DNA of 64,000 nt from Escherichia coli (lineage in GTDB: Bacteria > Pseudomonadota > Gammaproteobacteria > Enterobacterales > Enterobacteriaceae), in the NCBI RefSeq assembly GCF_016903815.1, contig NZ_CP069973.1; one strand, 5' to 3'. A program made the translations under genes and the position numbers. The notes beneath the pieces were generated by a model, which did no database searches, was not told where the DNA came from, and worked only from the letters and a program-made list of their open reading frames with translations. Below, piece by piece: positions 1 to 30,272 of the stretch (its first letter is position 1; every line of letters starts with the position of its first letter).

Positions 1-715
1 TGCGTAACTGTTTTTCCACTATGCTCATAAACCATACTGCCAGAAGCACGGGGAAAACCGTTCCCTGATAGCCAATCATGGCGATTTCAAAACCGAAGAA
101 GTTCATTGTCTGAAATCCCGCAGCAACGCCCCAGGCATTTGTGAGTGCCGGGTGAGTCAGAATCCCTCCTAATGTCGCGCCAAGATAAGGATTTCCACCA
201 AATTCACGAGCAGCAGTAAAGCCAATAAGGATGGGGAGAATAATAAATGCGGCTGAACTGCACATATCCAGCAGGATATAAATCGCATTATCGGTATTCA
301 CCCAGCCATATGTTTTCACCATTCCCAGAAGCCCCATTAATAAACCAGAAGCAACAATGGCTGGAATGATGGGGACAAAAATATTAGAAAGTAGCCGTGC
401 TATTCGCTGAAAAGGATTGAGTTTTTGAGCGGCGAGTCGAGCGATATCTGCTTTACTGGATTCGCTAATACCTGCAACCTGAATAAAGGCAGCATAGACT
501 TTATTAACCACGCCGGTGCCAAAGATAATTTGCATTTGCCCTGAATTACGAAAACAACCTTTCACTCCATCAATCTGGCCAATGGCATGTTGATCGGCAA
601 GTGTGTCGTCAACCAGTACCAGCCGTAGGCGAGTGGCGCAATGTGCTGCACTGGCGATGTTCTCCTTACCACCTAATAAAGGAAGCAACGATTGGGCGAT
701 TTTATCGAAATCCAT
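1..715 (-). CDS. scrA: PTS sucrose-specific EIIBC component, N-terminal part (gene runs off the left edge)
   Basis: Reverse-strand translation from the ATG at 715 reads MDFDKIAQSLLPLLGGKENIASAAHCATRLRLVLVDD... (EIIB Cys motif), then hydrophobic EIIC segments. Absent from the ORF track because the frame leaves the window. Synteny scrK-scrY-scrA. Confidence 0.88.
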   Translation of the reverse strand, partial: MDFDKIAQSLLPLLGGKENIASAAHCATRLRLVLVDDTLADQHAIGQIDGVKGCFRNSGQMQIIFGTGVVNKVYAAFIQVAGISESSKADIARLAAQKLNPFQRIARLLSNIFVPIIPAIVASGLLMGLLGMVKTYGWVNTDNAIYILLDMCSSAAFIILPILIGFTAAREFGGNPYLGATLGGILTHPALTNAWGVAAGFQTMNFFGFEIAMIGYQGTVFPVLLAVWFMSIVEKQLR

Positions 716-775
716 ATAACCCTCTAATTCATTGTTATTTCAGTAAAAACTTCACATCTGTGAGGTTGTCTGGTA

Positions 776-2317
<1,542 letters not shown>

Positions 2318-2338
2318 TTATAAAAATTGCTAAAATGC

Positions 2339-2350
2339 TAAACCGGTTTA
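2339..2350. promoter_or_regulatory. LacI-family (ScrR-type) operator-like perfect palindrome TAAACCGGTTTA upstream of scrY
   Basis: Perfect 12-bp palindrome in the scrK-scrY intergenic region. Related half-sites recur at 2397 and 3414. Confidence 0.55.
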
Positions 2351-2396
2351 GGTGTTGATAATAAAGCTGACTTTTTAGCCAAAGCAATTATTTTCG

Positions 2397-2410
2397 CTAA
2401 ACCGATTTAG
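2397..2410. promoter_or_regulatory. Second ScrR-type operator-like near-palindrome CTAAACCGATTTAG
   Basis: 14-bp near-palindrome (one mismatch) 47 bp from the first, same TAAAyCGrTTTA core. Confidence 0.5.
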
Positions 2411-2460
2411 TAAATGTGACAGGCACGACAAATCGGGTTACAGATACAACAGCAGGATCA

Positions 2461-3381
2461 CTATTGTGAAGGGAGATCGTGTTGTCGGGGTAAGGCGGTC
2501 ATCGCGCCTTTAGCCGTGGTCGCCAGAGCACCACAAATCTGAGCTTGTACAATGATTCGTTCAAGCTGTCTGGTATTTGTTGGTATTCCAGAATCAGCCA
2601 GACCGGCAAGTAATCCAGCGACAAAAGCATCTCCTGCCCCGGTCGTATCGACGACAGAAACAGGTTTGGCGGGATAGTGGATAAACTGCCCCTGAAAATA
2701 CACAAGTACGCCATTTTTTCCTTGTGTGATAAGCAATAAAGTCAACGAATAACGTTGTACTAATGAATATGCGCCTTGCTGAACCTGGCTTTCGCCACTG
2801 ATGAATAGCAACTCTTCTTCGGACAATTTAGCGATATTCGCCAGCGAAAGTGCGCGATCAAGGTATTTCCTTAATAGCGCTTCACTCTGCCAGAGATCGC
2901 TGCGGATATTGGGATCAAAACTGATGTTTCCGCCAGCCTGACGTATTTTCTCCATAGCCAGAAATGCGGTACTTCGGGAAGGTTCTGCACTGAGCGCAAT
3001 GGAACAAAGATGGAGCCATTCACCCGGCCCAAATGCAGGAAGGCCATCAGGTTGTAAAAAAAGATCGGCACTTGGGCGTACCATAAAGGTAAAGTTTCTT
3101 TCTCCTTGCTCATCAAGTCCTACAGCCACAATTGAGGTGCGATGTTGAGGATCAAGAGACATATAACGTGTATCAACATTTTCTGTACTCAGTGTCTGAT
3201 ACATAAAGCGACCGAAAGGATCATCGCCAACTTTGCCAATAAAGGCACTTTTCCCCCCCAGCCTTGCGATACCGACTGCAACATTAGCAGGCGCCCCGCC
3301 AGGACACTGTAGTAGTCTCCCCTGGCTTTCGGGTAATAAATCAACAACCGCATCACCAAGTACCCATACTCTTGTGCTCAT
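2461..3381 (-). CDS. scrK: Fructokinase (PfkB/ribokinase family)
   Basis: 306-aa ORF MSTRVWVLGDAVVDLLPE...CPGGAPANVAVG...DTTGAGDAF...ATTAKGAMTALP, with the PfkB signatures. First gene of the scr operon. Confidence 0.9.
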   Translation of the reverse strand: MSTRVWVLGDAVVDLLPESQGRLLQCPGGAPANVAVGIARLGGKSAFIGKVGDDPFGRFMYQTLSTENVDTRYMSLDPQHRTSIVAVGLDEQGERNFTFMVRPSADLFLQPDGLPAFGPGEWLHLCSIALSAEPSRSTAFLAMEKIRQAGGNISFDPNIRSDLWQSEALLRKYLDRALSLANIAKLSEEELLFISGESQVQQGAYSLVQRYSLTLLLITQGKNGVLVYFQGQFIHYPAKPVSVVDTTGAGDAFVAGLLAGLADSGIPTNTRQLERIIVQAQICGALATTAKGAMTALPRQHDLPSQ

Positions 3382-3413
3382 AAAGGCTCCAATATACTAA
3401 TTGCTAAACTAAT

Positions 3414-3425
3414 TAAATCGATTTA
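3414..3425. promoter_or_regulatory. ScrR-type operator-like perfect palindrome TAAATCGATTTA just upstream of scrK
   Basis: Perfect 12-bp palindrome embedded in the larger symmetric TTGCTAAA...TTTAGCAA, 33 bp upstream of the scrK start. Confidence 0.55.
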
Positions 3426-3940
3426 GCAATTAAAGCATAAACGCTGCTCAGGAGAGAACAATATTCATCAATAGTTACGTGGTATTTTGTTGTGAGAATA
3501 TGTCGGAAATATGGTAAGTGATGAGATAGTCTTCCCCCACCTTCACGACCGCTTTCAATTGCGCCATAGCGAATAAATTTTAACCACAAAAGTAAGAGAA
3601 AGGCCATGATTGAACAGAAAATTACCGACATCGCTCAGGCTAAAACGAACTTTTATCTTTTCAGTATCAATGCTCGTGGCAATCACGCGGGAAAGATCAA
3701 ACTTTCTCACAACCAACTGCTTAACTGGCTGGTATAACAGCCAAAATGACCGTTGCGATGAAGGCTTGCGGGACATCCCATCACTGCCCACAGGAAATAA
3801 GGGAACTCAACTATGATGTAATATTGCATCCAGCACAACATGTTAAATCTTATCAATGGCGTCAGAAAAATGATTATAACAACGCACAGCAATAGCTGAA
3901 ACCTATCAATATAGAACTATACGACTGGTACCAATAAAAA

Positions 3941-3971
3941 GTCTGGACCTACAGAACGTCCAGGCTTTTTT
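3941..3971. terminator. Bidirectional rho-independent terminator-like hairpin
   Basis: CTGGAC-N9-GTCCAG stem flanked by an A-run on the left and TTTTTT on the right (AAAAAGTCTGGACCTACAGAACGTCCAGGCTTTTTT). Confidence 0.55.
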
Positions 3972-3977
3972 GAAAAT

Positions 3978-4172
3978 GCATCGGTTGATCTCGATGGAAG
4001 GACACAACTGATAGATCATGTTCTTGGACTTCTTACTGAATACGGCATTGTGTTCAGTAAAAGCGCAACAGAATTACGCCCCAAATTACCGGCATTACTT
4101 GAGGATGCGGCGATGCTGTACCTGCGGATTGGTACATGCCGTCTGAACAATATGGCTCCAGAAAAATGGCTG
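3978..4172 (+). pseudogene. IS110-family transposase internal fragment
   Basis: The plus-strand frame reads ...GRTQLIDHVLGLLTEYGIVFSKSATELRPKLPALLEDAA.... This matches the RTxLxNxIRGLLxEFGIxxxxGxxxLxxxLPxLLED stretch typical of IS110-family DEDD transposases. There is no start codon and no 5' or 3' part. Confidence 0.5.
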
Positions 4173-4214
4173 TGAACCGCCCCGGGTTTCCTGGAGAGTG
4201 TTTTATCTGTGAAC

Positions 4215-5105
4215 TCAGGCTGCCAGATCATCGTTTCCGATGGAAGCATAATAAGCTTTTTCTGCTTCTGCCGGAGGAGTATGGCCCAGCCTTCCCAGCA
4301 ATCGTCGATTGTTATACCAGTCCACCCACGTTAGTGTGGCCAGTTCCACTTCTGCACGGTTTTTCCAGCTCTTACGGTGTATTACCTCCGCTTTGTAAAG
4401 ACCATTGATGCTCTCAGCCATCGCGTTGTCATACGAGTCGCCTGTACTCCCTGTTGATGCCAGTAATCCGGCTTCTTTTAGTCGCTCCGTATAGGCCAGT
4501 GACACATACTGAGAGCCTTTATCGCTGTGATGGATGGTGCCAGACGGACGACGGGCCCACAACGCCTGCTCCAGCGCATCCAGCACGAATGTCGTTTCCA
4601 TAGACGATGAGACCCGCCACCCCACGATGTATCCGGCAAACACATCAATGATAAACGCCACATAGACGAAGCCCTGCCATGTGCTGACGTAAGTAAAATC
4701 AGCCACCCACAGCTGGTCAGGTCGTTCTGCCACGAACTGACGGTTTACGCGGTCGCCTGCGGCAACGGCTTTCCGGCTGATGGTCGTACGGACCTTTTTA
4801 CCCCGGAGAACACCGGCAAGTCCCATAACCGCCATGAGACGTGCCACTGTACATCTGGCCACCCTGATTCCTTCCCGTAACAACTGACGCCAGACTTTAC
4901 GCACACCGTACACCTGATGATTTTCATCGTATACGCGCTGTATCTCTCTCTTCAGCCAGTCGTCGTGCTGCGCACGGGCACTGCGTTTATCCGGATGATG
5001 TCGCTGTTGCTGACAATGGTAATACGTTGACGGGGCAATATGCAGTTCGCTGCATACCGGTCCGACCCCGTACTGCTCACGCAGCTTATCCAGCAGTGGC
5101 ATCAT
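4215..5105 (-). CDS. IS629 OrfB (DDE integrase-type transposase catalytic subunit)
   Basis: 296-aa ORF with WVADFTYV (D), HHSDKGSQY (D) and DNAMAES (E) motifs of IS3-family transposases. Confidence 0.95.
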
Positions 5106-5428
5106 TTTTTCCAGAGGCGGTCGAACTCCGCCTTCGCAAAATAAGCGGAAGCCTGGCGAAGGATATCGTTACTGCGGCGCAGTTCACGATTTTCACGTTC
5201 CAGCTCTTTCAGACGCTGACGTTCAGCGCTGGTGAGCCCACCATCACCGCCCCCGGTATCCCGCTCATGCTGGCGAACCCAGACACGCAGAGTCTCCGGC
5301 GTACAGCCAATCTTTGGAGCAATGGAACAAATTGCCGCCCACTGTGAGTCATATTCATCCTGACTTTCCAGAACCATACGAATCGCCCGCTGACGGACTT
5401 CGGGGGAAAAACGAGTATTTTTAGTCAT
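5102..5428 (-). CDS. IS629 OrfA (HTH transposase subunit)
   Basis: 108-aa [45 protein letters not shown]... with a leucine-zipper-like tail. Overlaps orfB by ATGA. Confidence 0.95.
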
Positions 5429-5482
5429 CCTGTTTACCTCTTTCTCAGGGAGTTTAGTCTCCAGGATTTCCGGGGCGGTTCA

Positions 5483-8400
5483 GCTGTTCATTAAAACGTT
5501 GTCCAGGCTGATCATAAAGTGCGCGTAATGTCTCCGCGGATGGCCGCGGTTGCATTTGCTGCATGCAGGGTTTCTGGTGGTAATCAAAATACTGTGGCAG
5601 ATGCTGGATCTCTGCTTTGTTTTCAATTACCCGTTGAAGGGCTCTTTGACGCAACTCTCTTGATGATTTGTCACGGATCGATTCCAATTGTAGCTGGCTG
5701 CCGCTACTAATTCGCTTACGAGCAGCATCAAAATCAAAGCGAATAGCCAATAGACTCGGCGTAGTCTCACTTAGCTGCAATTCCCCTAATTGCACTGATT
5801 CACGCTTATCTTTAATATAAACAATGATCTTATCATCAAGTTCAAAGCTGAGGTCAGCACCGGATTCCGTAGTATATGGGTAGAGTAAGCAACCACTCGG
5901 TGATTCCTGAAAGTCAGTAGAGTCGATGTTGACTATATCTCGTAGGTCTACTTCTGTATCAGATAATGCCTGCCATAACTCAATTGGGCTTGACTCACTA
6001 CTATCGAAGTCATCTTCATCCATCTCTTGATTAGGATTAGCTCGCTCAATGATGGCATCAATTACTGGCTCGAGGTTAAACAGTAGTTCAATAAAAGTAT
6101 TACGCTGATTAAGTGAGCCACGTTGTAATGAAAGTTGAGTATTAATTTTAGCCTGGGAATATTTACCAGCCTTTATACTTTCTTCGATCGATAATCCTTT
6201 TTCATACACTATTCTATTAATAGTGCGATTATCAGGATCTAAGTCTATCAATAGCCGCTCTCCTAGGCCAGTGATGTAACAACGCAATTCATGCGCAAAG
6301 CGTGGGTTAGATGACCAGTTACATTGAAAATAATAGATCCCATCATTTTGTTCTAGAAGCTTCACTTCTTGCGGCCAATCATCTGTGCCCCAGCAAACAG
6401 GAATTACCTTATCCTGTGACTCAGACGCCACAACTTGATTAATCTCAGCTTGTTCCGGTGCTCGAATTGACTGCAGCAAAGGATCGAGCGCGATAGGTAT
6501 ACCGTCAACGGTTTGTTTTGCGCGTTCTAGCTCAGCCTGCACCAGTACTGGCATATCTTCACTAAATAGCTCCTCCACCATACGATATACTGCAAAGCAA
6601 TCTCGCCCAAAAGCATCAGTACTTTCGGGATTCTCTGGCTGGTAGCGATTATCTGCAGTTAATTCATCACTGAATTCAAGCAATCCAATCAGAGTAATTA
6701 CTGTCTGCTCCCCGACTTGTACCAGCAGTTTCTCTGGGCAAAGATCTCCATGAGGTAACTGCTTTTCATGAAAAGCATGAATGGTGTTGATCAACTTTTC
6801 CGCAATTGTAAAACGTTGGGATTGTACTAACACGTTCTCAGCAATAAACTGTGACCACGGTAGGCCATCCACATACTCGCTCACTACATACAAGCCGCCT
6901 TGTCCTAATAGTCCATAGGACTGCACCTTAGGAGTTGGCAGATTTATATGCGTAAGCTTATCGATCCGTTGCTTAAAAGCGTGGATACGGCGGTTAACAC
7001 CAGGTTGTTGAGGGGTCAAAATAACACCATCCCACAATTTTACCTGCAGAGCTTTCCCACCTTGTTCACAGTGATAACTGATGCTGCCAGTCGTAGCAAT
7101 AGCAGCAAGAGCAGAGTAAACCATAGACAACTGTTCAGGAAGTGGAGGAAACTCAATTAACACACCAACGCTGTTCATCCCTTCGCGAAAGAATTTGTTT
7201 TGCTTTAATTCTTGATAAATCTGGTTAGCTTCATCAAATTCTTGGCTATGTTCCTTAGTAGCTGCATTAAACTCATTGAGCATTATGTCCGCACGTGGAA
7301 AGCGTTTACTTGGCTCAAGGTTAAGAGCTTGCTCAAACCAGCTATTTAGAATACCGCTAAAAGGATCAGTTAATGGAGCTCTCCATTCAGGCATCTGTCC
7401 AGGAGTCAGTAATGATTCACCTGCAAAACAAATACGATAAGCAATTACAGCCAACATGAATACATCTAGGCGATAGGGCTCAACTGCTTCTTCAAAAGCA
7501 TCTTCGGGCAAAATATATGGAGCACTTTGCAATGTCGGACGCAATGACTCTAGGCTATTATGTCCCTCCAGTGAGGCTGCGCCAAAGCCAGTAACGACAA
7601 TGCTCTTCTGATCCCCTGCGTACCATAGATTGTGCGGGTCAATATCACAATGACTGATACCCAAGCTATGTAATTCCGAGAATGGAGCTAATAATGCACG
7701 AACGCGATCAATACGCTCAGATTTACTCCATCCGTCAGCTTCGCTATCTAGAATCTCATCTAATCGGCTAAAACTACGGCGTAACTCATACAGCTCACGG
7801 GCATCATCAGTTATATCCTCCTCGGATAGTTCCCTTACAGCACGCAACATATAATCCTGCATAGTTGCGCTGCCATGACGAACTAGGCGACCGACTCGAG
7901 TCTCACGCAGAGCTATCTCAGCCCACAATGTTTGCATTGCGTTTGCTACACCCAAGGCATCAAAGTTCCACTGCCGTAGCAGACCTCTGTGTTGACTATT
8001 GTCTTTGTGGGTAGCCCTGAATTCGTTGTAGACCATGTGAGGGTGACTAAAGAATGGCTTATCGTTCGCAAGATAACCGCTTTCTTTTAGTGGCAAAGGC
8101 CTGACTTTTGGTCCTTCAAAGAAGGACTTAATTATAGGTAATGCCTCATCAGAATTTGGTCGAGGCTTTCCCCCTTCAAAAAGATGAAAAAAGTTAGTGT
8201 GTTGCACCAGCTTTTCGTAATTTTTTGGGTTACCTATAGTCAAGAATTCATCACGGGTATGAACATAGCGCCTCTCACTTAATGGCAAGTTTTCAGGACC
8301 AGCTGTGCCACACAGCACTACATGAGCCTCAACATGCAAAAAGTAACCCAGCTTACGAGATAACTCTTCCTGCAACAAATCTTTTAGTCGCAGTGCATGC

Positions 8401-8678
8401 TCACGCTTGATCTGATAGGGACTTTTGCCTCGTGACTTACCATTTTGCAGCCACTTCCCCCCTTCAAATGTGATGTTACCATTCCACTCTTTAAGCTCGA
8501 CTAATAGCAGACGGTCAGCAGTAATAATTAGCATATCGATTTCCATCGACCCTTGGCTATCAGTAACAACTAAGCCAGCATAGCCAAACCAACTATCTGG
8601 TAACTGCTTAACCATCATATCAACTGTTTTGGTTTCGCTGCGGTGCAGGCCAGCACCACCTACTATCTGATACTTCAC
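5483..8678 (-). CDS. Large NERD-domain protein with two tandem, degenerate protein-kinase-like domains; 3' end interrupted by IS629
   Basis: ORF 5454..8678, GTG start with AGGAG 6 nt upstream. NERD-like N-terminus (..MEIDMLIITADRLLLVELKEWNG..). Kinase catalytic-loop motifs are GISHCDIDPHNLWY (~7629..7652) and LPHGDLCPEKLLV (~6730..6753). The last 8 codons plus the stop (5454..5482) are IS-derived. Confidence 0.75.
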
Positions 8679-8888
8679 GTTTTCTCCTGCACCACTAAAT
8701 TTTTGTTGGTGGTAGTCCAGTAAAAATGGATGTAGTTATCTAAGACAGCGCATAGATTGTGCCTGCCTAACCCTAAAAAGTGTAATTATGAAAAGTAACG
8801 CTAGAAATTCTATACCGTTCGCAAAGAGAACACTTTTCAAAGATATATCATCATCTTGAACATGTCACTATAATGGTGAATCCATAAG

Positions 8889-9050
8889 ATGCGAACACCA
8901 CATCTTGTGCCACTCAGCAAACAGGCTGTAGCCATACTGATAAAACTTCAGACATGGGCAGTTGAAAATGGTCTGGTCTTTACGGGAGCACATGACCCGC
9001 GTAAACCAATCAGCGAAAACACCGTAAATAAGGCCCTTAGGTGCCCTTGA
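8889..9050 (+). pseudogene. P4-type tyrosine integrase internal fragment
   Basis: 53 codons MRTPHLVPLSKQAVAILIKLQTWAVENGLVFTGAHDPRKPISENTVNKALR, matching the H-x-VPLS-x-QA...PISENT-x-NKALR core of P4-family integrases. The catalytic C-terminus is missing, and the stop codon TGA is the first three bases of the adjacent IS3-family end. Confidence 0.7.
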
Positions 9051-9800
9051 ACCACTATATCCAGACAGCCGTTGAGCTTAAGTTAACGTTACCGAGTGAC
9101 GTTGATATTCCCTCGGTGAGAGATAACCAAGGCACCATGAGGATGCTATTCGTTATAGTGTTCGAACGCCTCCGCAAGGTTTTTTACTGCCGTTAACACG
9201 TCCGGTTTAGGTATGATACTGATGTAATCGCTCTTCATCGTTTTCACGAACCGTTCTCTCATTCCATTACTCTGAGGGCTACTGACTGCCGTCGTGCAGA
9301 GCTCCAGATTCAACTCTCTGGCGAACTGCCGTGTTTCATGAGTTGTATAAGCCGAACCGTTATCGGTCAGCCACTGGATGGGCCATCCCGGTCTATCGCC
9401 AAAGCGTTTTTCTATCGCTCCTGACATGACATCCTGCACCGTTGCTTTGCCATAACCTCCCGTGCTTGCGGCCCAGTCTATGGATTCAAGATCGCAACAG
9501 TCCAGTGCGAACGTGACACGCAGTTTTTCGTCATCATCACAACCGAACTCAAAGCCATCGGCACACCAGCGCGGGTCGCTTTCCTTCACCGATATTCGGG
9601 CCTTTATGTTCCCTCTGCGGTCGTGAAGGTTTGTCATGTAATAACAACAGGTTATTCTCGCTCATTATTCGATAAACGCGATTTGCATTCACGAACTGCA
9701 GTCCTTCGTTAAGACTGCCGTCTGAGAATAGCCCGGACACGACGATAGCCATCGAATCGCTGAACAGCGTCATTCGGCAGGCGATAAAGAAGGTGTCGTT
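9048..9800 (-). mobile_element. Degenerate, 5'-truncated IS3-family element (orfB remnant only)
   Basis: The end sequence TGAACCACTATATCC begins at 9048. ORFs 9146..9637 and 9549..9773 together read an IS3-type OrfB (..VNANRVYRIM.., [24 protein letters not shown]). It carries at least two frameshifts and an in-frame TAG where W is expected (HYNE*HPHGALGYLSPREY). No orfA is present. Confidence 0.7.
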
Positions 9801-9879
9801 ACGGGGAAGTCATCTTCACAGAGATTTTCAGTCAGTTAGCATTACCGACATTCATTCACCAACTTACCGGAGATAATCA

Positions 9880-10209
9880 ATGTCAAAACCCCGATGGACC
9901 ATTGAACAGAAAAGGCAGCACGTTGCTGCCTGGCGCGCCAGTGGTCTTACACGTCAGCAATACTGTGAACTCAACGATATTCCCTTCACATCACTTCGCG
10001 AATGGCCGCAGGATGTCGCAAAAGCTGAACGCCGGGCAAATGAACCGACCGTTCTTCCCGTTCATATTGCGCCACCACTGCATGCTGATGTACCACAGCC
10101 CGTCACGAATGAGCCAGTCACGCTCTTCCTTCCCGGCGGAGTACGGATGTGCTGTCAGCCGTCACAACTTACCGATGTCTTCAGGGCGCTCAAATATGCT
10201 CAGTCCTGA
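9880..10209 (+). CDS. IS66-family accessory protein TnpA (orf1)
   Basis: 109-aa ORF MSKPRWTIEQKRQHVAAWRASGLTRQQYCELNDIPFTSLREW... (HTH). The stop overlaps the tnpB start. Confidence 0.85.
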   Translation: MSKPRWTIEQKRQHVAAWRASGLTRQQYCELNDIPFTSLREWPQDVAKAERRANEPTVLPVHIAPPLHADVPQPVTNEPVTLFLPGGVRMCCQPSQLTDVFRALKYAQS

Positions 10210-10588
10210 TAATGTCTTCATCGCGATTAAACCTGTTGACATGCGCCGGGGCATCGACACACTGACGCAGTATATACAGGATGAACTCCGGTCGACATGG
10301 CATGAGGGAGCCGCCTTCGTCTTTGTTAACAAAGTCCGTTCGCGTATCAAAGTTCTCCGGTGGGATAAACACGGGGTGTGGTTGTGTACCCGCCGTCTGC
10401 ACAAAGGCAGCTTCCGCTGGCCACGTGCAAATGATGCTGCCTGGCACCTAACTCCCGACGAGTTTAACTGGCTGATTGCCGGTGTTGACTGGCAGCAGGT
10501 TAAGGGACATGACCTGACGAAATGGGGCTGGCAGAATGAACCTGAACTGCGCCCTGAAAACACGCAAAATACACTGCTAACTCAGTGA
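10196..10588 (+). CDS. IS66-family TnpB (orf2)
   Basis: From the ATG at 10196: MLSPDNVFIAIKPVDMRRGIDTLTQYIQDEL...VFVNKVRSRIKVLRWDKHGVWLCTRRLHKGSFRWP, the IS66 Orf2 signature. The 228-aa track ORF 9902..10588 is an upstream read-through of the same frame. Confidence 0.9.
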   Translation: MLSPDNVFIAIKPVDMRRGIDTLTQYIQDELRSTWHEGAAFVFVNKVRSRIKVLRWDKHGVWLCTRRLHKGSFRWPRANDAAWHLTPDEFNWLIAGVDWQQVKGHDLTKWGWQNEPELRPENTQNTLLTQ

Positions 10589-10630
10589 AAAATAATGAAT
10601 ATCCGTATCTGGAGTGGTATACTCCCCTGT

Positions 10631-11465
10631 ATGGATATCTCCGCTCTCAACACCACGAATGACATCGAAAAACTGCGTGCTATGGCACTTACCATGGTAC
10701 AAAAAGTCATGTCGGAGAATGCCGAAAAAGAGCGGGAATTACTGGAGAAAAGCCGGCGCATCCAGCTTCTGGAAGAAATGCTGAAACTGGTTCGTCAACA
10801 GCGCTTCGGTAAAAAATGTGAAACGCTGGCTGGTATGCAACGCTCCCTGTTCGAAGAGGATGTTGATGTCGATATCGCCGCGCTTACCGCACATCTGGAT
10901 AAACTGCTCCCGCAATCCCCTGAAGAAGACGAAAAAGCGTCCCGTTCACGCCCGATACGCAAACCCTTACCGGCTCATCTTCCACGGGTGGAAAAAATTA
11001 TCCAGCCGGACACTGACCATTGCCCTGAATGTGACGAGCCGCTGCACTATATCCGTGATGCGGTGAGTGAAAAGCTGGAGTATATTCCCGTTCACTTCGT
11101 GGTGAACCGTTATGTCCGTCCGCAATACAGTTGTTCCTGTTGCCAGAAGGTGTTCAGCGGTGAAATGCCGGCACATATCCTCCCGAAAAGTGCCGTTGAG
11201 CCATCAGTCATCGCACAGGTGATCATCAATAAATACGGTGACCACCTGCCTCTGTATCGCCAGCAACAGGTCTTTGCCCGTTCAGTGTCGGGCTGCCCGT
11301 CAGTTCGATGGCTGACATGGTTGGCGCGGCGGGTGCCGCATTATCTCCCCTGGCGGCGTTACTCCATCGCGAGTTGATAAACCGTCCGGTGGTGCATGCA
11401 GATGAGACTACCCTGAAGATCCTGAACACTAAGAAAGGCGGTAAATCCTGCTCCGGTTATCTGTG
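10631..11465 (+). pseudogene. IS66-family transposase TnpC, frameshifted (~11285) and 3'-truncated
   Basis: MDISALNTTNDIEKLRAMAL...CPECDEPLHYIRD...PLYRQQQVFARS continues in another frame as ..MADMVGAAGAALSPLAALLHRELINRPVVHADETTLKILN...GYLWA. After that the DDE domain is missing. Confidence 0.85.
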
Positions 11466-20046: not shown

Positions 20047-20104
20047 GATCTCCGTTGATTTGGATTGACTTCACATCATTAATCACCGCGGTAAAACTTT
20101 ACGG
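20047..20104 (-). repeat. ~58-nt conserved leader element, copy 2, abutting the start of gene 19308..20039
   Basis: See copy 1. This copy contains the RBS (AACGGAGATC) of the downstream gene. Confidence 0.7.
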
Positions 20105-20876
20105 CATCCCGCCATTGAGCAACGCCAATGGCTCCTGATTAAAACAGAATGAATCCCCCACGAAGAAAAAATAAACCTACACGCAGAGTAAAACACACAA
20201 CAACGGCATAAATGGTTTTTAAAAACTACAAAGCCTGAAGGGAAACGGATCCACAGAACGTGCAAACAAAACACCAAAAACGCAATCAGAACGCTTTCTG
20301 CTGCTGTGAATCAACAACAATACCAAAACCTACAGCTTAACCACAAAACTCAATCACAGAGCCGAATAGCGTGTTTAAAACCTGTTTACAGATAACCCTG
20401 CCACAAGAACAAAGTTCACCAATATCAGAATCGATTTTCTCATCCTGAAAATGTTACGTTTCACTACACAGCATAAAAACGATTAACTATTGATAACGTA
20501 AACCTCATCTGAATCAAAACACCAGAACCAATCATCACGCTTTTCCTGAAAAGAGCCTTGCGCTGAGAAAAAACACCAGGGTCAGTTAATCATCTCATCA
20601 ATCTCATCGTTACAAAAACATCCATAAAACCATTTAACAAAATCATCGTAAGCACACAGTAAATCACGCCAGGTTATCTCAGCCAAATTTTCGTTTTACA
20701 TAAAGACACTTGTCTCAGGTTAACGACTAAAAACACAAAAACTCAGAAAAGGTTAAACGTAACTTCAGAAAAATAGAATATCATATTGATTGCTTAAACA
20801 GGAAAGATTGTTTTGTAGTAGCATTAAGCTGATTTTAGTTAACGTAAAAACAGGACTGACAGGTTTACTAAACTGG

Positions 20877-21095
20877 ATGTGTATCAGACAAAGCAATGTG
20901 TATAACAATACTTAATGAAAACACTTGTAGAATTGTTTATGAAAATACGTGTATGTCTGGTAAAACACTTAGTAGAAAATACGTGTATAACACTTACTGA
21001 AATGCTTAGTAAAAATACTTAGTAAAATATGTGTAGAATTATCTATTTAAAAAGATATGTATATAACACTTAATAAAAACATGTGTATATAGTAT
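20877..21095. repeat. Iteron-like array of interleaved short direct repeats
   Basis: RTGTGTATAACAMTACTTAATRAAAA-type units at 20896, 20981 and 21056. CTTAGTARAAAT x3 at 20968, 21005 and 21018. TGTAGAATTRTYTAT x2 at about 20926 and 21032. RYGTGTAT cores also at 20877, 20947 and 21081. Confidence 0.7.
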
Positions 21096-21359
21096 CATAC
21101 CGACATTCTCAACATCTTCAGACTTCCATACATACTGGGTGTTGATTTCTCACTTTTACAGCCAGCATGGAGTTTTCTGTCCTAAAAACAGAGCAGATTT
21201 ACTCTGGAATTATTTTTCTACCCCCGTATTTCAGGCCCCAGAAAAGACAATCCGAAGCAAACCGTTTGTCAGCCTCCATATCATCTTTTACCCCCGGAAA
21301 GTGATCGCGTTTACAACCAGAATGACAGCCATACTGATTATGTCGTCTCCCGGCCCCCT

Positions 21360-21563
21360 TCACATATAACATGCATGTCTGTCATTGCTTACTGCTCCAC
21401 ATGACCGGATTTCACATACAGGATGCACATTCAGTGTTTTTATCGCTACTATAACAGACAGATTACTGTCGTCTTTACTCTTCAGATTGTTAATCTGACC
21501 ACAAGAACAGCCGAACGGCAAAACGCCCTCCACAAGGGGCACATGAACCATAGTTGATAGCAT
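21360..21563 (-). CDS. Possible small Cys-rich (zinc-finger-like) protein
   Basis: From the ATG at 21563 (AGGA 6 nt upstream): MLSTMVHVPLVEGVLPFGCSCGQINNL...HPVCEIRSCGAVSNDRHACYM, 67 aa, CxC...Cx4C spacing. Divergent from gene 21731..22522. Confidence 0.35.
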   Translation of the reverse strand: MLSTMVHVPLVEGVLPFGCSCGQINNLKSKDDSNLSVIVAIKTLNVHPVCEIRSCGAVSNDRHACYM

Positions 21564-21730
21564 GTTTTTCCTAATCAAGGAATAGTTCAGGAATATTTTA
21601 TTGCATTAATAACTGGCGAATAATCGTTCTGTGAACACAAAATGCTTTTATTTGTAAATTTTATTGCATTGCACTCGTTTTATTGATATGGGGTTTAATA
21701 ACAGATAACCCGGAAAGAAGGAGAAAACAG

Positions 21731-22522
21731 ATGACATTACGGATTAACGATCAGGGGCGAGATAAACAGAATCAATTTTTATCGAAAAATGGAGAAAATC
21801 TGAATTCGTTAAAATCGCGTCATGTGCAGGATAGGCATTTACCTGAATGGCTTAAGGATAAAGTTGCAGCATTCTGGTTTTGTCTGGTGATAAAGGATAT
21901 GAAAGTGTCAGGGAGCAGTTACTATGAACTTACCATGCAACTTCCCACTTCTGAAGAATCTGTTTGCATCAGTAAGCTGTCATCCTCAACCCATGAGATT
22001 CGGCTGGAGATCATCAGGCGATGGATTGATAGTGTAGCGCAGATAGAAACGGAAGCTTTTACTAAAAATCTCGTTGATGCCATCTATAAAAACTGGAAGG
22101 AAATCGGGAACAAAAACCAGGCCACATGGCTTAAAAAAAATCCGGAACAACTCGAGTGGGCATGGAAATATATTAACATTCGTATTCCCGAGTCACATTT
22201 AACCTGGTTTTGCCCCGTCAATAACGAAGAGAAACGCATTGCCATCTTAGCATTGCTTAAAATACTGTATCCCGGAGATATACCATGCCAGTACAACGAC
22301 AAAGAGTTTCATGTCGGGATCTGCGCTGAAGAACATTTTTACAGAAGAATGCACGACGCTTTCAGAAAACAGTTTATCGACGGGAAAAAAGATAAACGGG
22401 TACAAATTAACGTAAAGATATCACCGTCCGCAAAAAGCGCTCTGGACAGACTGACCAGAGCGAGGAAAACAACACAGCAGGCTATTCTGGAACAACTGAT
22501 TCTGAACGGTAGACTGGATTAA
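21731..22522 (+). CDS. Hypothetical protein, function unknown
   Basis: Track ORF 21683..22522. The preferred ATG is 21731, with AAGGAG 9 nt upstream. No recognisable catalytic motif. The tail ..ISPSAKSALDRLTRARKTTQQAILEQLILNG resembles a ribbon-helix-helix segment. Confidence 0.6.
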   Translation: MTLRINDQGRDKQNQFLSKNGENLNSLKSRHVQDRHLPEWLKDKVAAFWFCLVIKDMKVSGSSYYELTMQLPTSEESVCISKLSSSTHEIRLEIIRRWIDSVAQIETEAFTKNLVDAIYKNWKEIGNKNQATWLKKNPEQLEWAWKYINIRIPESHLTWFCPVNNEEKRIAILALLKILYPGDIPCQYNDKEFHVGICAEEHFYRRMHDAFRKQFIDGKKDKRVQINVKISPSAKSALDRLTRARKTTQQAILEQLILNGRLD

Positions 22523-23505
22523 CTTTCACTACTTCCACTCCTGGCAGTTTTCCTCTTTTTGTAGTGTCTCCCGGCTGCAGGCATCAGGTACTTTTCCGTC
22601 ATTTCGTTGCAGAACTCTTCAATGTAGTTAATCAGCTTCTGGTGTGCTTTCACCTTTTCTTCCCCGGGGGACGCTTTCAGATAAATGTCCTCCTTTTCCA
22701 CAAGTGTATTTATAAACTCTCCCGGACATCCCTGGTTATAAAGCAACGTGAAAAACAACACATTCCCCAGTCTCTCCAGTAACTGCGATTTAACCCTGTA
22801 TTGTTGTTTGCTGAGGATTGATTGTTTTATAAAGCTTAGTCTTGTTAAAAGTTGTTCAAATCCCGGTTCCAGTTTAAAAACAGATTTTAATACCAGGGAC
22901 TGATACTCCTGATAAAAAAGTTCAAACGTCGGGGATGCAGACTGACGAACAGATTTGGCTACAACCCATGGACTAAATCCCATGATTGGGATTTCCTTCG
23001 CTCCCTCCAGCGCACTCAGAGGTAGTCCAGCAATCCATGCGTCCAGCTTAGCCGAATCAATATCCCCGCTCAAAACCTCATACAAACTGCCCGTGAACGG
23101 TTGAGTCGGTTTTTTTGTTGTTTTACCTTCTGATTGCCTGAATCCATCCACTTTTCTCCGGATATTACGCGGAATCAGCATAAAAGGCGGGACATTAAGT
23201 GATAAACGTTTACCCGTCATACGATACCAGTGGCCCACCTCAACCTTAATCCGTGTATCTGGCCTTGTATCTGGCCTTGTATCTGGCCTTAGCTCAAGTG
23301 CTATTATGTTAAGCAGGTACAGATAACGCACCGTATAACAGTCAAAATGTTTCTCCGGATCAAACGGCTCTGATCGTTCTCTGCACACAAGTCCGCTGCG
23401 CTTCAGTATTCGCTGGGTATCTTTCCAGGCCTTACTCTGAAGAATGGTGGTAACTCTGGCTTTATTAGCAATCTCACGCAGCGCATCACTTTGTTGTGCC
23501 GTCAT
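22519..23505 (-). CDS. Hypothetical protein with an internal RPDT x3 tandem repeat
   Basis: Track ORF 22519..23520. The preferred ATG is 23505 (GGAGG upstream). Its stop codon overlaps the convergent stop of 21731..22522 (TTAA). No family recognised. Confidence 0.6.
   Translation of the reverse strand: MTAQQSDALREIANKARVTTILQSKAWKDTQRILKRSGLVCRERSEPFDPEKHFDCYTVRYLYLLNIIALELRPDTRPDTRPDTRIKVEVGHWYRMTGKRLSLNVPPFMLIPRNIRRKVDGFRQSEGKTTKKPTQPFTGSLYEVLSGDIDSAKLDAWIAGLPLSALEGAKEIPIMGFSPWVVAKSVRQSASPTFELFYQEYQSLVLKSVFKLEPGFEQLLTRLSFIKQSILSKQQYRVKSQLLERLGNVLFFTLLYNQGCPGEFINTLVEKEDIYLKASPGEEKVKAHQKLINYIEEFCNEMTEKYLMPAAGRHYKKRKTARSGSSES
23255..23290. repeat. Perfect 12-bp x 3 tandem repeat GTATCTGGCCTT inside CDS 22519..23505
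   Basis: Read directly from the sequence. On the minus strand it encodes RPDTRPDTRPDT. Confidence 0.95.
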
Positions 23506-23611
23506 CTCTTCCCTCCACACTTTGTCACTCCAGATTTTTTCACGTCCATATTACCTGAATGATAAACCGGATTAGTGTGATCCGGTTCAGCGAAATCAAC
23601 AGGATACCGGT

Positions 23612-24496
23612 ATGTCATTCAGCCATTCTTCCCTCTCTGCACAAGTGAAATCATATCTGACGTTTCTTCCTGAAGAAATTCGCCAGAAAATCCTTGAACA
23701 TCTCCACGGTGTTATTCATTACGAGCCCGTGATTGGCATTATGGGTAAATCCGGCACAGGCAAAAGCAGCCTGTGTAATGCCATTTTTCAGTCCCGTATC
23801 TGCGCCACGCATCCCCTGAACGGCTGCACCCGCCAGGCTCATCGTCTTACCCTGCAGCTCGGTGAACGCAGAATGACGCTGGTCGATCTGCCCGGCATTG
23901 GTGAAACACCGCAGCATGATCAGGAATACCGGACACTTTATCGTCAGCTGCTACCGGAACTGGATCTGATTATCTGGATCCTACGGGCTGATGAACGTGC
24001 GTATGCTGCCGATATTGCCATGCATCAGTTTTTACTGAATGAAGGTGCAGATCCCTCGCGTTTTCTGTTTGTTCTCAGCCATGCCGATCGCGTGTTTCCT
24101 GCTGAAGAATGGAACGACACAGAAAAATGCCCGTCCCGTCAGCAGGCGCTCTCACTGGCGACGGTGACAGCCCGGGTGGCAACCCTGTTCCCTTCATCAT
24201 TTCCGGTACTCTCCGTTGCTGCACCTGTCGGCTGGAACCTTCCGGCGTTTGTGTCGCTGATGATCCACGCACTGCCACCACAGGCAACCAGCGCGGTGTA
24301 TTCACATATCCGGGGAGAAAACCGCTCTGAACAGGCCCAGAAACACGCACAACAGACTTTTGGTGACGCCATCGGGAAAAGCTTTGACGCTGCCGTTGTC
24401 CGGTTCAGTTTTCCGGCCTGGATGTTACAGCTTCTCCGTAAAGCCCGGGACCGCATTATCCACCTGCTGGTCACACTGTGGGATCGTCTGTTCTGA
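23612..24496 (+). CDS. YeeP/YkfA/YfjP-family GTPase (CP4-type prophage-like island)
   Basis: 294-aa ORF with P-loop GKSGTGKSSLCNAIF, G3 motif DLPGIGE and SHAD. First gene of the yeeP...cbtA module. Confidence 0.85.
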   Translation: MSFSHSSLSAQVKSYLTFLPEEIRQKILEHLHGVIHYEPVIGIMGKSGTGKSSLCNAIFQSRICATHPLNGCTRQAHRLTLQLGERRMTLVDLPGIGETPQHDQEYRTLYRQLLPELDLIIWILRADERAYAADIAMHQFLLNEGADPSRFLFVLSHADRVFPAEEWNDTEKCPSRQQALSLATVTARVATLFPSSFPVLSVAAPVGWNLPAFVSLMIHALPPQATSAVYSHIRGENRSEQAQKHAQQTFGDAIGKSFDAAVVRFSFPAWMLQLLRKARDRIIHLLVTLWDRLF

Positions 24497-24614
24497 GCGC
24501 CCCGGAGTCCCCCGTGGCAACCGTATACCTTTACACGACAACGGATTACGGTAACCACTGCCGTATACCGTCTGTCATTATCAATAACACGCTCTTTAAT
24601 TTCAGAGGTCAGTC

Positions 24615-25292
24615 ATGAATACCAGAATTCTTTTTCCCCTGCTGTTCACTGTGGCATCCTTCTCCGCCTCCGCCGGCAACTGGGCTGTCAAAAACGGCTG
24701 GTGTCAGACCATGACGGAAGATGGTCAGGCACTGGTAATGCTGAAAAATGGCACGATTGGTATTACCGGCCTGATGCAGGAATGCCCGAATGGCGTACAG
24801 ACGCTCCTGGGCAGCCGTATCAGTATTAACGGTAACCTGATCCCCACATCACAAATGTGTAATCAGCAGACGGGATTCAGGGCTGTTGAGGTGGAAGTCG
24901 GACAGGCGCCGGAAATGGTCAAAAAAGCCGTTCACTCCATAGCAGAGCGTGATGTGTCCGTTTTACAGGCATTTGGTGTACGAATGGAATTCACCCGCGG
25001 TGATATGCTGAAGGTCTGTCCGAAATTTGTCACATCACTTGCCGGTTTTTCCCCGAAACAGACACCCGCCATTAATAAAGATTCCGTCCTGCAGGCTGCC
25101 CGGCAGGCATACGCCCGGGAATATGACGAGGAAACAACAGAAACCGCTGATTTTGGCTCTTACGAAGTAAAAGGCAATAAGGTTGAGTTTGAAGTGTTCA
25201 ATCCTGAAGACCGTGCGTACGACAAAGTGACCGTCACGGTTGGTGCTGACGGTAATGCCACCGGTGCCAGCGTTGAATTTATCGGAAAATAG
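24615..25292 (+). CDS. Exported protein of unknown function
   Basis: 225-aa ORF with signal peptide [20 protein letters not shown]. It occupies the slot that holds the Ag43 gene in CP4-44-type islands. Confidence 0.6.
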
Positions 25293-25297
25293 CCGGT

Positions 25298-25531
25298 ATG
25301 TCGGACTGTCACCCTGTTTTATTGCCCGAAGGCCCTTTCTCACGCGAACAGGCGGTTGCCGTCACAACAGCTTACCGCAATGTGCTTATTGAAGATGACC
25401 AGGGAACGCATTTCCGGCTGGTTATCCGTAATGCTGAAGGTCAGTTGCGCTGGCGATACTGGAATTTTGAACCTGATGCCGGAAAACAGCTAAATCCGCA
25501 TCTCGCCAGTGAGGGAATTCTCAGGCAATAA
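25298..25531 (+). CDS. Small DUF905-like island protein
   Basis: 77-aa ORF ..[53 protein letters not shown]... Position and size match the DUF905 genes of CP4-type islands. Confidence 0.6.
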
Positions 25532-25552
25532 ACGTCTTCATTTCATCCATCA

Positions 25553-25585
25553 GGCCGCGTCTTCTCCGGGAGACGCGGCCTTTTC
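25553..25585 (+). terminator. Rho-independent terminator
   Basis: GGCCGCGTC-N10-GACGCGGCC followed by TTTT. Confidence 0.8.
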
Positions 25586-25620
25586 ATTTATACCGCTAAC
25601 TCATTCATAAGGAGCAAAGT

Positions 25621-26439
25621 ATGCAATTAGCCAGTCGTTTTGGTCATGTAAATCAGATCCGTCGGGAGCGCCCACTGACACGCGAAGAACTGATGTACCA
25701 CGTCCCGAGTATTTTTGGAGAAGACCGGCACACCTCCCGCAGTGAACGGTATGCGTACATTCCCACCATCACCGTCCTGGAAAATCTGCAGCGGGAAGGC
25801 TTTCAGCCGTTCTTCGCCTGCCAGACCCGTGTGCGCGACCAGAGCCGTCGGGAATATACCAAACACATGCTGCGTCTGCGGCGGAGCGGACAGATAACCG
25901 GCCAGCATGTGCCTGAAATTATTCTGCTCAACTCCCATGACGGTTCATCCAGCTACCAGATGTTACCCGGATATTTTCGTGCCATCTGCACCAATGGCCT
26001 GGTCTGCGGTCAGTCGCTGGGAGAAGTCCGGGTGCCACACCGGGGAAACGTGGTGGACAGGGTGATTGAAGGTGCTTACGAAGTGGTGGGCGTTTTTGAC
26101 CGGATTGAGGAAAAGCGTGATGCCATGCAGTCGCTGCTCTTACCGCCACCGGCACGTCAGGCACTGGCTCAGGCGGCACTGACTTACCGTTATGGTGACG
26201 AACATCAGCCCGTCACCACTGCCGACATTCTGACACCACGACGCCGGGAGGATTACGGTAAGGACCTGTGGAGTGCTTATCAGACCATCCAGGAGAATAT
26301 GCTGAAAGGCGGGATTTCCGGCCGCAGTGCAAAAGGAAAACGTATCCATACCCGGGCCATTCACAACATCGACACCGACATTAAGCTCAATCGCGCATTG
26401 TGGGTGATGGCGGAAACGCTGCTGGAGAACCTGCGCTGA
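25621..26439 (+). CDS. YafZ/YfjQ family protein (UPF0380/DUF932)
   Basis: 272-aa ORF MQLASRFGHVNQIRRERPLTREELM...EGFQPFFACQTRVRD...ILLNSHDGSSSYQM...CTNGLVCG... closely parallels K-12 YfjQ/YafZ. Confidence 0.8.
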   Translation: MQLASRFGHVNQIRRERPLTREELMYHVPSIFGEDRHTSRSERYAYIPTITVLENLQREGFQPFFACQTRVRDQSRREYTKHMLRLRRSGQITGQHVPEIILLNSHDGSSSYQMLPGYFRAICTNGLVCGQSLGEVRVPHRGNVVDRVIEGAYEVVGVFDRIEEKRDAMQSLLLPPPARQALAQAALTYRYGDEHQPVTTADILTPRRREDYGKDLWSAYQTIQENMLKGGISGRSAKGKRIHTRAIHNIDTDIKLNRALWVMAETLLENLR

Positions 26440-26515
26440 TGCCGTTTACCTGAATCACGTCTGTCCCTGCCCCCGAGCCTTCTTCATTCATTTGCTTTTT
26501 ATAAGGAATAATATC

Positions 26516-27001
26516 ATGACAACCTCTTCGCATAATTCCACCACACCTTCTGTTTCCGTAACTACTGCATCAGGGAATAACCAGTCTCAACTGGTTGCCA
26601 CTCCCGTCCCTGATGAACAGCGCATCAGCTTCTGGCCGCAGCACTTTGGCCTCATTCCACAGTGGGTGACCCTGGAGCCCCGCGTCTTCGGCTGGATGGA
26701 CCGTCTGTGCGAAGACTACTGCGGTGGTATCTGGAATCTGTACACCCTGAACAACGGCGGGGCATTTATGGCACCCGAACCGGATGACGATGATGACGAA
26801 ACATGGGTACTGTTCAATGCCATGAACGGTAACCGCGCTGAAATGAGCCCGGAAGCTGCCGGTATTGCCGCCTGTCTGATGACGTACAGTCATCATGCCT
26901 GTCGTACGGAGTGTTATGCCATGACGGTCCATTATTACCGGCTGCGGGATTACGCCCTGCAGCATCCGGAATGCAGCGCCATTATGCGCATCATCGACTG
27001 A
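26516..27001 (+). CDS. Antirestriction protein (ArdB/KlcA-like, YfjX/YafX family)
   Basis: From the ATG at 26516 (AAGGAA upstream): MTTSSHNSTTP...FWPQHFGLIPQWVTLEPRVFGWMDRLCEDYCGGIWNLYTLNNGGAFMAP.... Confidence 0.8.
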   Translation: MTTSSHNSTTPSVSVTTASGNNQSQLVATPVPDEQRISFWPQHFGLIPQWVTLEPRVFGWMDRLCEDYCGGIWNLYTLNNGGAFMAPEPDDDDDETWVLFNAMNGNRAEMSPEAAGIAACLMTYSHHACRTECYAMTVHYYRLRDYALQHPECSAIMRIID

Positions 27002-27016
27002 ATGGAGGCAGGGACA

Positions 27017-27493
27017 ATGCAGCAGCTTTCCTTTCTGCCCGGAGAAATGACGCCCGGCGAGCGCAGTCTCATTCTGCGGGCTCTGAAAACCCTGGACCGC
27101 CATCTTCATGAACCCGGTGTGGCCTTCACCTCCACCCGTGCGGCACGGGAATGGCTGATTCTGAACATGGCGGGACTGGAGCGTGAAGAGTTCCGGGTGC
27201 TGTATCTGAATAACCAGAATCAGCTGATTGCCGGTGAAACCCTCTTCACCGGCACCATCAACCGCACGGAAGTCCATCCCCGGGAAGTGATTAAACGCGC
27301 CCTGTATCACAATGCCGCTGCCGTGGTGCTGGCACACAATCACCCGTCAGGTGAAGTCACACCCAGCAAGGCAGACCGCCTTATTACGGAACGTCTGGTA
27401 CAGGCACTGGCCCTGGTGGATATCCGGGTGCCGGACCATCTGATAATCGGTGGCAGCCAGGTTTTCTCCTTTGCGGAACACGGTCTGCTTTAA
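27017..27493 (+). CDS. RadC-like JAB-domain protein (YeeS/YkfG/YfjY family)
   Basis: MQQLSFLPGEMTPGERSLI...AHNHPSGEVTPSKADRLITERL (JAMM motif HxHPSG...D). Confidence 0.85.
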   Translation: MQQLSFLPGEMTPGERSLILRALKTLDRHLHEPGVAFTSTRAAREWLILNMAGLEREEFRVLYLNNQNQLIAGETLFTGTINRTEVHPREVIKRALYHNAAAVVLAHNHPSGEVTPSKADRLITERLVQALALVDIRVPDHLIIGGSQVFSFAEHGLL

Positions 27494-27561
27494 CCCGTCA
27501 CCGTCACAACCACATCACACCTGTTTTCACTTTTATCTTCTGTCTTCAGAGGTATCACACT

Positions 27562-30259: not shown

Positions 30260-30272
30260 CTAATTCTTAAGA

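Follow-up and report, generated by a model that had tools for sequence, protein, structure and literature searches.

The stretch of DNA analysed here (64,000 nucleotides of Escherichia coli contig NZ_CP069973.1; hereafter the window) carries a single long open reading frame (ORF) at 5454..8678 on the minus strand, which is very probably a truncated mkoA, the large subunit gene of a Mokosh type I anti-phage defence system, lying against a copy of the insertion sequence (IS) IS629. In the ORF listing of the window it begins with GTG and encodes 1074 amino acids. Codons 1 to 1065 and one further nucleotide are native (5483..8678, minus strand), as judged from the match to MkoA profile PDLC03921 and from identity to an intact allele, and the last nine codons are encoded by the IS. 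Read in gene orientation, the 3' end is ...CGT TTT AAT GAA CAG C/TG AAC CGC CCC GGA AAT CCT GGA GAC TAA (slash, junction), so that native base 5483 contributes the C of the first tail codon (L) and the tail LNRPGNPGD with its TAA stop occupies 5454..5482 (minus strand; sequence read and ORF listing). A preliminary description of this locus, made from the sequence alone, had given 1065 native codons from a GTG at 8678, and this is what we find, with the native frame continuing to base 5483. The ribosome binding site AGGAG that it reported is also present in the sequence (8684..8688, minus strand), although the spacer before the GTG is 5 nt long (AAAAC) and not 6. Identical alleles in RefSeq are annotated with the same GTG start codon, the N-terminus of the ORF is conserved in a 60-sequence family alignment, and two weak sigma-70-like sites lie intact upstream.

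At the N-terminus, residues 14-122 (8313..8639, minus strand) form a NERD domain, a nuclease of the PD-(D/E)xK type (PF08378, E=2.6e-14, 54.1 bits versus a cut-off of 22.1), and all 60 sequences of the family alignment (A1) share residues D48, D55, E61 and K63. Kinase-like domain 1 follows at about residues 190-476 (7251..8111, minus strand). It is delimited by a Pkinase match at residues 317-418 (E=1.8e-9, 37.8 bits versus a cut-off of 31.7), by sequence matches of PDB kinases to residues 285-461 at E about 1e-6, by Foldseek, and by secondary structure, with strand and helix assignments taken from an AlphaFold2 model. Within it, GISHCDIDPHNLWY (residues 340-353, 7620..7661) provides H343-C-D345 and N350, and T363-G-F stands in the place of DFG; H343 and D345 are invariant in alignment A1 and N350 is found in 55 of the 60 sequences. 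An invariant arginine, R235, occupies the position of the beta3 lysine, and the alphaC glutamate E259 is likewise invariant. The DFG position reads S/T-G-F throughout the 60 sequences, and the experimentally verified MkoA of E. coli SEC470 has a like pattern (HRDVADHS ... SNF). Because the same pattern recurs in 60/60 sequences and in the verified protein, the missing metal-binding aspartate is a trait of the family and not a sign of decay.

Kinase-like domain 2, of the Bud32/RIO/Kdo type, covers about residues 482-741 (6456..7235, minus strand) and matches both the Kdo/WaaP-type kinase family PF06293 (residues 617-665, 24.5 bits versus a cut-off of 21.3) and Bud32 TIGR03724 (E=2.8e-7). It contains LPHGDLCPEKLLV (residues 641-653, 6720..6758); in alignment A1, H643-G-D645 is invariant and K547 is present in 56 of the 60 sequences. 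As in Bud32, RIO and Kdo kinases, 53 of the 60 sequences have N650 together with an LID-x-LD motif (D665, D668), whereas all seven sequences of the E. coli clade carry K650, G665 and E668 (window 6684..6752, residues 643-665), residues absent from the other 53. The clade is 67-100% identical to the E. coli protein and includes members from Escherichia, Shewanella, Pantoea, Vibrio and Photobacterium. Judged from these alignment columns, N650K/D665G/D668E is a correlated, clade-specific triple change that is fixed within the clade. The residue set of an active eukaryotic-like protein kinase (beta3 Lys, HRD Asp, Asn and DFG Asp) is incomplete in both domains.

An AlphaFold2 model of the 1065 native residues, built on the 60-sequence alignment, has a mean predicted local distance difference test (pLDDT) score of 86, and a Foldseek comparison of this model with the PDB returned almost exclusively protein kinases. 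The top match is a tandem duplication of the EGFR kinase domain aligned over 600 columns, which is consistent with a tandem kinase arrangement, and phosphorylase kinase matches with a template modelling score of 0.72. Two beta-rich modules lie C-terminal to the kinase-like domains, at about residues 757-855 and 914-1000 (5679..6410, minus strand), modelled at pLDDT 80-94 with linkers below 50. Searches of residues 701-1065 against Pfam and PDB sequences gave only sub-threshold SH3 matches (SH3_1, E=0.016; myosin IB SH3, E=0.6), and W902 and E909 are invariant in the 60-sequence alignment. Residues 1001-1065 (5484..5678, minus strand), with model helices at 1001-1018 and 1048-1055, are a helical lead-in to a helicase and end in ..FNEQ. 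On the domains, then, the preliminary description was accurate. The N-terminal NERD domain and the two kinase-like cores that it proposed score above the Pfam cut-offs, the motifs it quoted are all present within about 10 nt of where it placed them, and the alignment columns bear out its statement that both cores keep the HxD aspartate and lack the DFG aspartate, with lysine in place of asparagine at position 650 of the second. The AlphaFold and Foldseek runs for which it called recovered a kinase fold.

The fragment matches the PADLOC profile for MkoA of Mokosh type I, PDLC03921, with E=2.2e-188 and 627 bits over profile positions 2-1030 of 1607, roughly the first two-thirds of the profile, and an intact allele from E. 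coli strain 222 matches it end to end (E=0, 1305 bits, positions 2-1598 of 1607). Mokosh was defined by Millman et al. 2022 (bioRxiv 10.1101/2022.05.11.491447), where type I is a kinase-helicase protein with a separate phospholipase D (PLD) protein; in Table S2 of the same source, E. coli SEC470 is the origin of a verified type I system, with an MkoA of 1652 amino acids and a NERD-like N-terminus. We recovered the SEC470 locus from strain TUM1886 and found that its MkoA is 27% identical to the intact allele over residues 30-1645 (E=1e-164), and that its MkoB is 23% identical to the MkoB of the intact locus over the full length (E=1e-20). Length (1652 amino acids) and domain order are the same in this long-form system (PDLC03921/PDLC03923) and in the intact allele; in both, mkoB overlaps mkoA, and kinase-like domain 1 is without the DFG aspartate. 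The two differ in that sequence identity is as low as stated for each subunit, in that the E. coli clade represented here has lost N650, D665 and D668 of domain 2 whereas SEC470 keeps HGDIHPGN, and in that neither the helicase nor mkoB is present in the window copy. A 2023 review (PMC10952713) already places NERD PF08378 under 'Mokosh type I'. We are therefore highly confident that the ORF is a truncated mkoA of a long-form type I Mokosh system and that the remnant is most likely non-functional for defence. The suspicion voiced earlier that this was an anti-phage gene is supported by the MkoA profile match, but the accompanying remark that no described system has this architecture was mistaken: the architecture is that of MkoA, already described and experimentally validated, and the locus almost certainly holds no new defence module. 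We suggest that the ORF be annotated as a Mokosh type I mkoA pseudogene or defence-system remnant.

What has been lost is apparent from intact alleles, which we surveyed by megablast against 5,426 complete E. coli genomes. The mkoA locus is present in 71 of these, always on the chromosome, and in 70 the allele is free of the IS and 100% identical to the window sequence up to base 5483. In strain 222, positions 1..12618 of the extracted locus L001 equal window 18100..5483 at 100% identity (the native part, 5483..8678, being L001 9423..12618), and L001 then continues into a complete mkoA of 4,959 nt encoding 1652 amino acids (WP_000877066.1, annotated 'AAA domain-containing protein'). Past the junction the intact protein reads FNEQ/QLMAF...GPPGTGKT, with QLMAFQQLVEFGPVGVLQGPPGTGKT as the continuation. 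Pfam places AAA_11 at residues 1062-1382 (2e-46) and AAA_12 at residues 1402-1609 (5e-45), and GPPGTGKT, the Walker A motif, is residues 1084-1091. This motif, Walker B (DEAG) and the later helicase motifs are invariant in the 60-sequence alignment, and none is present in the window copy. The closest solved relatives of the helicase are Upf1/NAM7, Sen1 and Dna2 (E down to 3e-28), so that the full order of MkoA is NERD, kinase-like domain 1, kinase-like domain 2, two beta-rich modules and an Upf1-like superfamily 1 (SF1) helicase. In a search by sequence for solved Mokosh structures, MkoB had no match and MkoA matched nothing more specific than Upf1-like helicases and kinases.

Directly after intact mkoA, and overlapping its stop codon, lies mkoB (L001 14381..15928, outside the window), a gene of 515 codons whose product matches MkoB PDLC03923 at E=1.1e-61. 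Seventy E. coli genomes have a stop-overlapping mkoB. The mkoA homologues of Methylomicrobium, Tolumonas and Xanthomonas, too, are each followed by an overlapping gene for 519-547 amino acids without a Pfam match, and the genes flanking the pair are unrelated among these three genera. The intact locus is a mobile two-gene cassette and not a single-polypeptide system. The search for IS-free alleles proposed in the preliminary description thus confirmed its guess that the native frame ends in the lead-in to an SF1 helicase, which indeed follows FNEQ, and at the same time overturned its picture of a standalone, single-polypeptide module, since mkoB is a conserved neighbour that overlaps the mkoA stop in four genera.

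Pfam detected no domain in long-form MkoB. A model of a 96% identical protein (P0120; pLDDT 87) shows a winged helix and a PLD-like fold, and it matches NucT and Nuc, both PLD nucleases, and to a lesser degree Zucchini. Its conserved segment, H420-G-Q-P-N-x-D-S427-x6-G434-Y-x-T437, is spaced like the canonical HxK(x)4D(x)6GSxN motif and retains only the histidine and the glycine. All 40 sequences of alignment A2 have H420, S427, G434 and T437, and of HKD only the histidine is left. Table labels in Millman et al. give SEC470 MkoB as helix-turn-helix ('HTH') and the short-form MkoB of H10407 as 'HTH-PLD'. We hypothesise that long-form MkoB is a divergent, possibly non-catalytic PLD-like protein, and that MkoA has gained an intact NERD nuclease.

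An alternative reading is that the IS event created a new stand-alone module, in which the truncated NERD and tandem-kinase protein is expressed and has an activity of its own, for instance as a nuclease or toxin released from control, as a phage sensor or as a dominant-negative partner. In its favour, the start codon and ribosome binding site are undamaged, as is the region upstream; NERD keeps its catalytic residues; every N-terminal domain is modelled with confidence by AlphaFold2; the break lies between domains, 19 residues ahead of the Walker A motif of intact alleles; and the native 3,196 nt are 100% identical to those alleles without sequence decay. However, such identity is equally expected after a very recent loss, and the N-terminal module is almost always fused to a helicase. 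A word-indexed search gave 111 clusters at E of 1e-200 or better, nearly all of 1,615-1,681 amino acids and distributed across Gammaproteobacteria, that have NERD, Pkinase/Kdo, AAA_11 and AAA_12 in common. An exhaustive search with the 1065-residue fragment gave 165 representatives at E<=1e-30; among the best 150 of these, 101 have at least 1500 amino acids, and the shorter ones form a continuous range of 96-1464 amino acids and are fragment-like. Moreover, the exact junction of the window occurs in 0 of the 5,426 complete E. coli genomes, hence no spread of the truncated form is seen. We consider the stand-alone reading improbable.

Two candidates for a natural stand-alone or split NERD-kinase protein emerged from the family search, and neither held up. 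The sole 'split' locus examined, the metagenomic L014 (P0180, 1081 amino acids), is an interrupted gene and not a natural two-gene form: at 5290..5345 reading stops after ..GPPGTGKTGSLSFGVG, just beyond Walker A, and the next ORF (5327..8122) begins with about 497 unrelated N-terminal residues before the helicase resumes. These roughly 1.5 kb of unrelated sequence suggest an insertion inside the helicase gene. The other, P0197 on L015, stops 110 nt short of the end of its contig and gives no information.

The truncated mkoA abuts a complete IS629/IS1203 copy of 1310 bp (4173..5482, minus strand) with terminal inverted repeats TGAACCGCCCCGG and both orfA (5102..5428, 108 amino acids) and orfB (4215..5105, 296 amino acids) on the strand of the ORF. 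The element is 100% identical to copies named 'IS3-like element IS1203 family transposase' in RefSeq, IS1203 being an isoform of IS629. The ORF stop lies 25 nt upstream of the orfA ATG at 5428, in the same orientation (window 5428..5456), and transcription from the mkoA promoter could run on into the IS629 transposase genes.

The preliminary description held that IS629 had cut the gene. The 3' end does abut IS629, but this was no simple cut, and no downstream remainder exists in the window: the 3' third of mkoA and mkoB left no trace in the 64 kb, whether by blastn (word size 11) or tblastn. Window 1..4172, which holds sucrose phosphotransferase system, porin and kinase genes, corresponds at 100% identity to strain 222 868108..863937, a stretch that borders a resident IS1203 copy in that genome (IS copy 2; 16628..17937 of the extracted locus L003). 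The window IS matches this resident copy both in orientation and in its far flank, GGTTCA/CAGCCATTTTT. Taking L003 724..16627 (15,904 bp) out of the strain 222 arrangement thus yields the window. The missing segment comprises the 1,763 nt of mkoA that encode the helicase, the whole of mkoB, a group II intron amid IS3-family debris, a further IS3-family copy, a further IS1203 copy, IS66 remnants, and four unrelated genes, for an MFS transporter, a RidA protein, a sugar-phosphate isomerase and an HTH regulator. Comparison of the two arrangements indicates that the IS marks one end of a 15.9-kb deletion. The deletion could have arisen by insertion of IS629 into mkoA and subsequent recombination with the resident copy, or directly, by a deletion ending at the left end of the resident copy. 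The loss is recent because the surviving 3,196 nt remain 100% identical to intact alleles.

The same four bases stand on both sides of the window IS, at 4169..4172 and 5483..5486 (GCTG on the plus strand, CAGC in gene orientation). Their resemblance to a target-site duplication would fit a simple IS629 insertion, with the rest of mkoA and mkoB just beyond the IS and a functional system recoverable by precise excision. However, the far flank is the flank of the sucrose locus, which in strains with intact mkoA already lies beside an IS1203 copy with a CAGC duplication. With the far flank being the pre-existing flank of strain 222 IS copy 2, and with the missing parts untraceable, simple insertion is refuted within the 64-kb window, and we give it almost no weight. 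The mkoA-side CAGC equals the target duplication of the resident copy, and the two flanks lie 15.9 kb apart in strain 222; the shared bases are either microhomology at the deletion end point or a chance match, expected 1 in 256.

We considered strain 2779 (H1) as a possible second carrier of the window allele and rejected it: its junction is 3 nt shorter (GAAC/IS versus GAACAGC/IS) and the DNA beyond the IS is differently arranged. On this evidence its IS1203 junction is a separate event. RefSeq names its near-identical truncated product 'NERD domain-containing protein kinase family protein'. Two IS629/IS1203 junctions are thus found 3 bp apart in closely related backgrounds (window 5483 versus 12615/12616 of the strain 2779 locus, L002). 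The five bases with which the IS end begins, TGAAC, are also found in the junction site, which may be an insertion hot spot. In isolate AF56 (L012), IS3 and ISVsa5 lie inside mkoA, which is split into three coding sequences, and strain 2013C-3181 (L013) has a frameshift near codon 390. Broken mkoA genes are accordingly found in 3 of the 71 carriers (2779, AF56 and 2013C-3181) and in the window, as independent disruptions.

Phage protection has been shown in the literature for the SEC470, H10407 and CFE331 systems, and mutants of the Mokosh helicase ATP site and of the PLD active site lose defence, according to Millman et al. (10.1101/2022.05.11.491447). In addition, T-even phages need the T4 Alt ADP-ribosyltransferase as well as DNA glucosylation to evade type I Mokosh of uropathogenic E. 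coli (10.1101/2025.11.20.689424). The system in the window is most likely inactive, as the preliminary description had supposed, because the helicase, whose ATP site is needed for Mokosh defence, and mkoB are both gone. Several points weigh against this reading. Our literature search for a mechanism of the type I system found none, and in one study type I Mokosh resisted purification (10.1101/2025.07.10.664194). The mutational data of Millman et al. are not tied to the long-form subtype in the accessible text. Finally, the truncated protein may still be made: its start codon, ribosome binding site and two weak sigma-70-like sites are intact, and its domains are well folded in the model.

In an intact long-form system, mkoA is co-transcribed with mkoB. 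The helicase would probably act on phage RNA or replication intermediates, with the tandem kinase-like module probably serving as a sensor or a regulatory gate, and phage nucleic acid would then be cut by NERD, by the PLD-like MkoB, or by both. A more specific proposal is that the effector nuclease of the long-form type I system is the NERD domain of MkoA and not MkoB; we offer this idea tentatively and rate it as doubtful. It is suggested by the reduction of the MkoB HKD motif to its histidine within a PLD-like fold, by the invariance of the D..ExK residues of NERD, by the character of domain 1, throughout the family, as a putative pseudokinase-like sensor (arginine for the beta3 lysine, no DFG aspartate), and by the N650K, D665G and D668E changes, which would make domain 2 a pseudokinase in the E. 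coli clade as well. If the NERD domain were the effector, the truncated protein would keep the whole effector and the sensor part and might retain deregulated nuclease activity. The pattern of catalytic residues across the two kinase-like domains, the degenerate HKD motif of long-form MkoB and the repeated independent disruption of this mkoA allele are of wider interest, and may help in choosing mutations for mechanistic studies of Mokosh type I.

The short-form type I system of enterotoxigenic E. coli H10407 (PDLC03920/PDLC03922) consists of a 1215-residue MkoA ('Kinase-Helicase') and a 602-residue MkoB ('HTH-PLD'). It resembles the intact long-form system in combining a kinase with an Upf1-like helicase, the intact allele matching PDLC03920 over residues 1021-1630 (E=1e-120), and in the N-terminal HTH of MkoB, which matches PDLC03922 over residues 8-126 (E=3e-4). 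In contrast, H10407 MkoA begins with the kinase N-lobe and has its helicase at 460-1215, so that NERD, a second kinase and the beta-rich modules would not fit, and its MkoB is annotated with a PLD domain whereas long-form MkoB keeps only the histidine of HKD. Nhi and Nhi-like proteins, in a defence context, join NERD and an SF1 helicase on one polypeptide as MkoA does, but they lack both kinase-like domains and an MkoB partner, and the 25 best PADLOC matches listed include no Nhi profile. The helicase and the PLD-like partner of the intact system also recall the eukaryotic RNA-helicase/PLD-nuclease pairs of Upf1/MOV10L1 and Zucchini (PLD6), and Cury et al. (10.1101/2022.12.12.520048) have suggested the link with the piRNA pathway. 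The eukaryotic proteins are without NERD or kinase modules, however; the HKD motif of MkoB is degenerate, and the window has neither the helicase nor the PLD-like part.

PglW of BREX type 2/Pgl and MAD6 of MADS share a homologous N-terminal NERD and kinase module of about 400-480 residues with MkoA and differ from it in their C-terminal parts and partner genes. Membership of the ORF in one of these systems and not in Mokosh, to which its matches to MAD6 (NF047741, E=4e-39, residues 10-487) and PglW (NF033442, E=2.8e-23, residues 14-417; PADLOC PglW, E=2.3e-23) might point, is refuted and of negligible probability, the common module being real homology, since these matches are limited to the N-terminal 40-45% of the fragment and score well below the curated family cut-offs (134.6 bits versus 460 for MAD6, 81.6 versus 990 for PglW) whereas the MkoA profile reaches 627 bits over the whole fragment, and since the Mokosh helicase and mkoB are found with intact alleles, next to which no BREX or MADS genes lie.

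Beyond mkoA, window 16205..64000 is colinear with strain 222 at 99.996% identity. The window carries sslE and gsp type II secretion genes, a group 2 kps capsule cluster, CP4-like island genes (a CbtA/YeeU toxin-antitoxin, an antirestriction protein and RadC), pseudogenes of the type VI secretion genes tssF and tssG, and IS66 remnants; no tRNA gene was found in its 64 kb. About 9.5 kb from mkoA lies a gene for ThsB, the Thoeris TIR protein (18180..18884, plus strand, 234 amino acids), which matches PDLC00424 over its full length (E=2.7e-128). Beside it there is no ThsA, neither as an ORF of at least 90 amino acids nor as a convincing stop-free stretch, and ThsB is either an orphan or the survivor of a pair whose partner has degraded. 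Upstream of mkoA, window 9146..14000 contains integrase and DDE transposase fragments, IS66 tnpA and tnpB, a frameshifted transposase and truncated tssF and tssG, and these remnants are arranged in the same way in strain 222. The context is a decaying, IS-rich genomic island with defence genes, and the truncated mkoA adds one more case of IS-linked defence-gene loss in an island of the type found in extraintestinal pathogenic E. coli.

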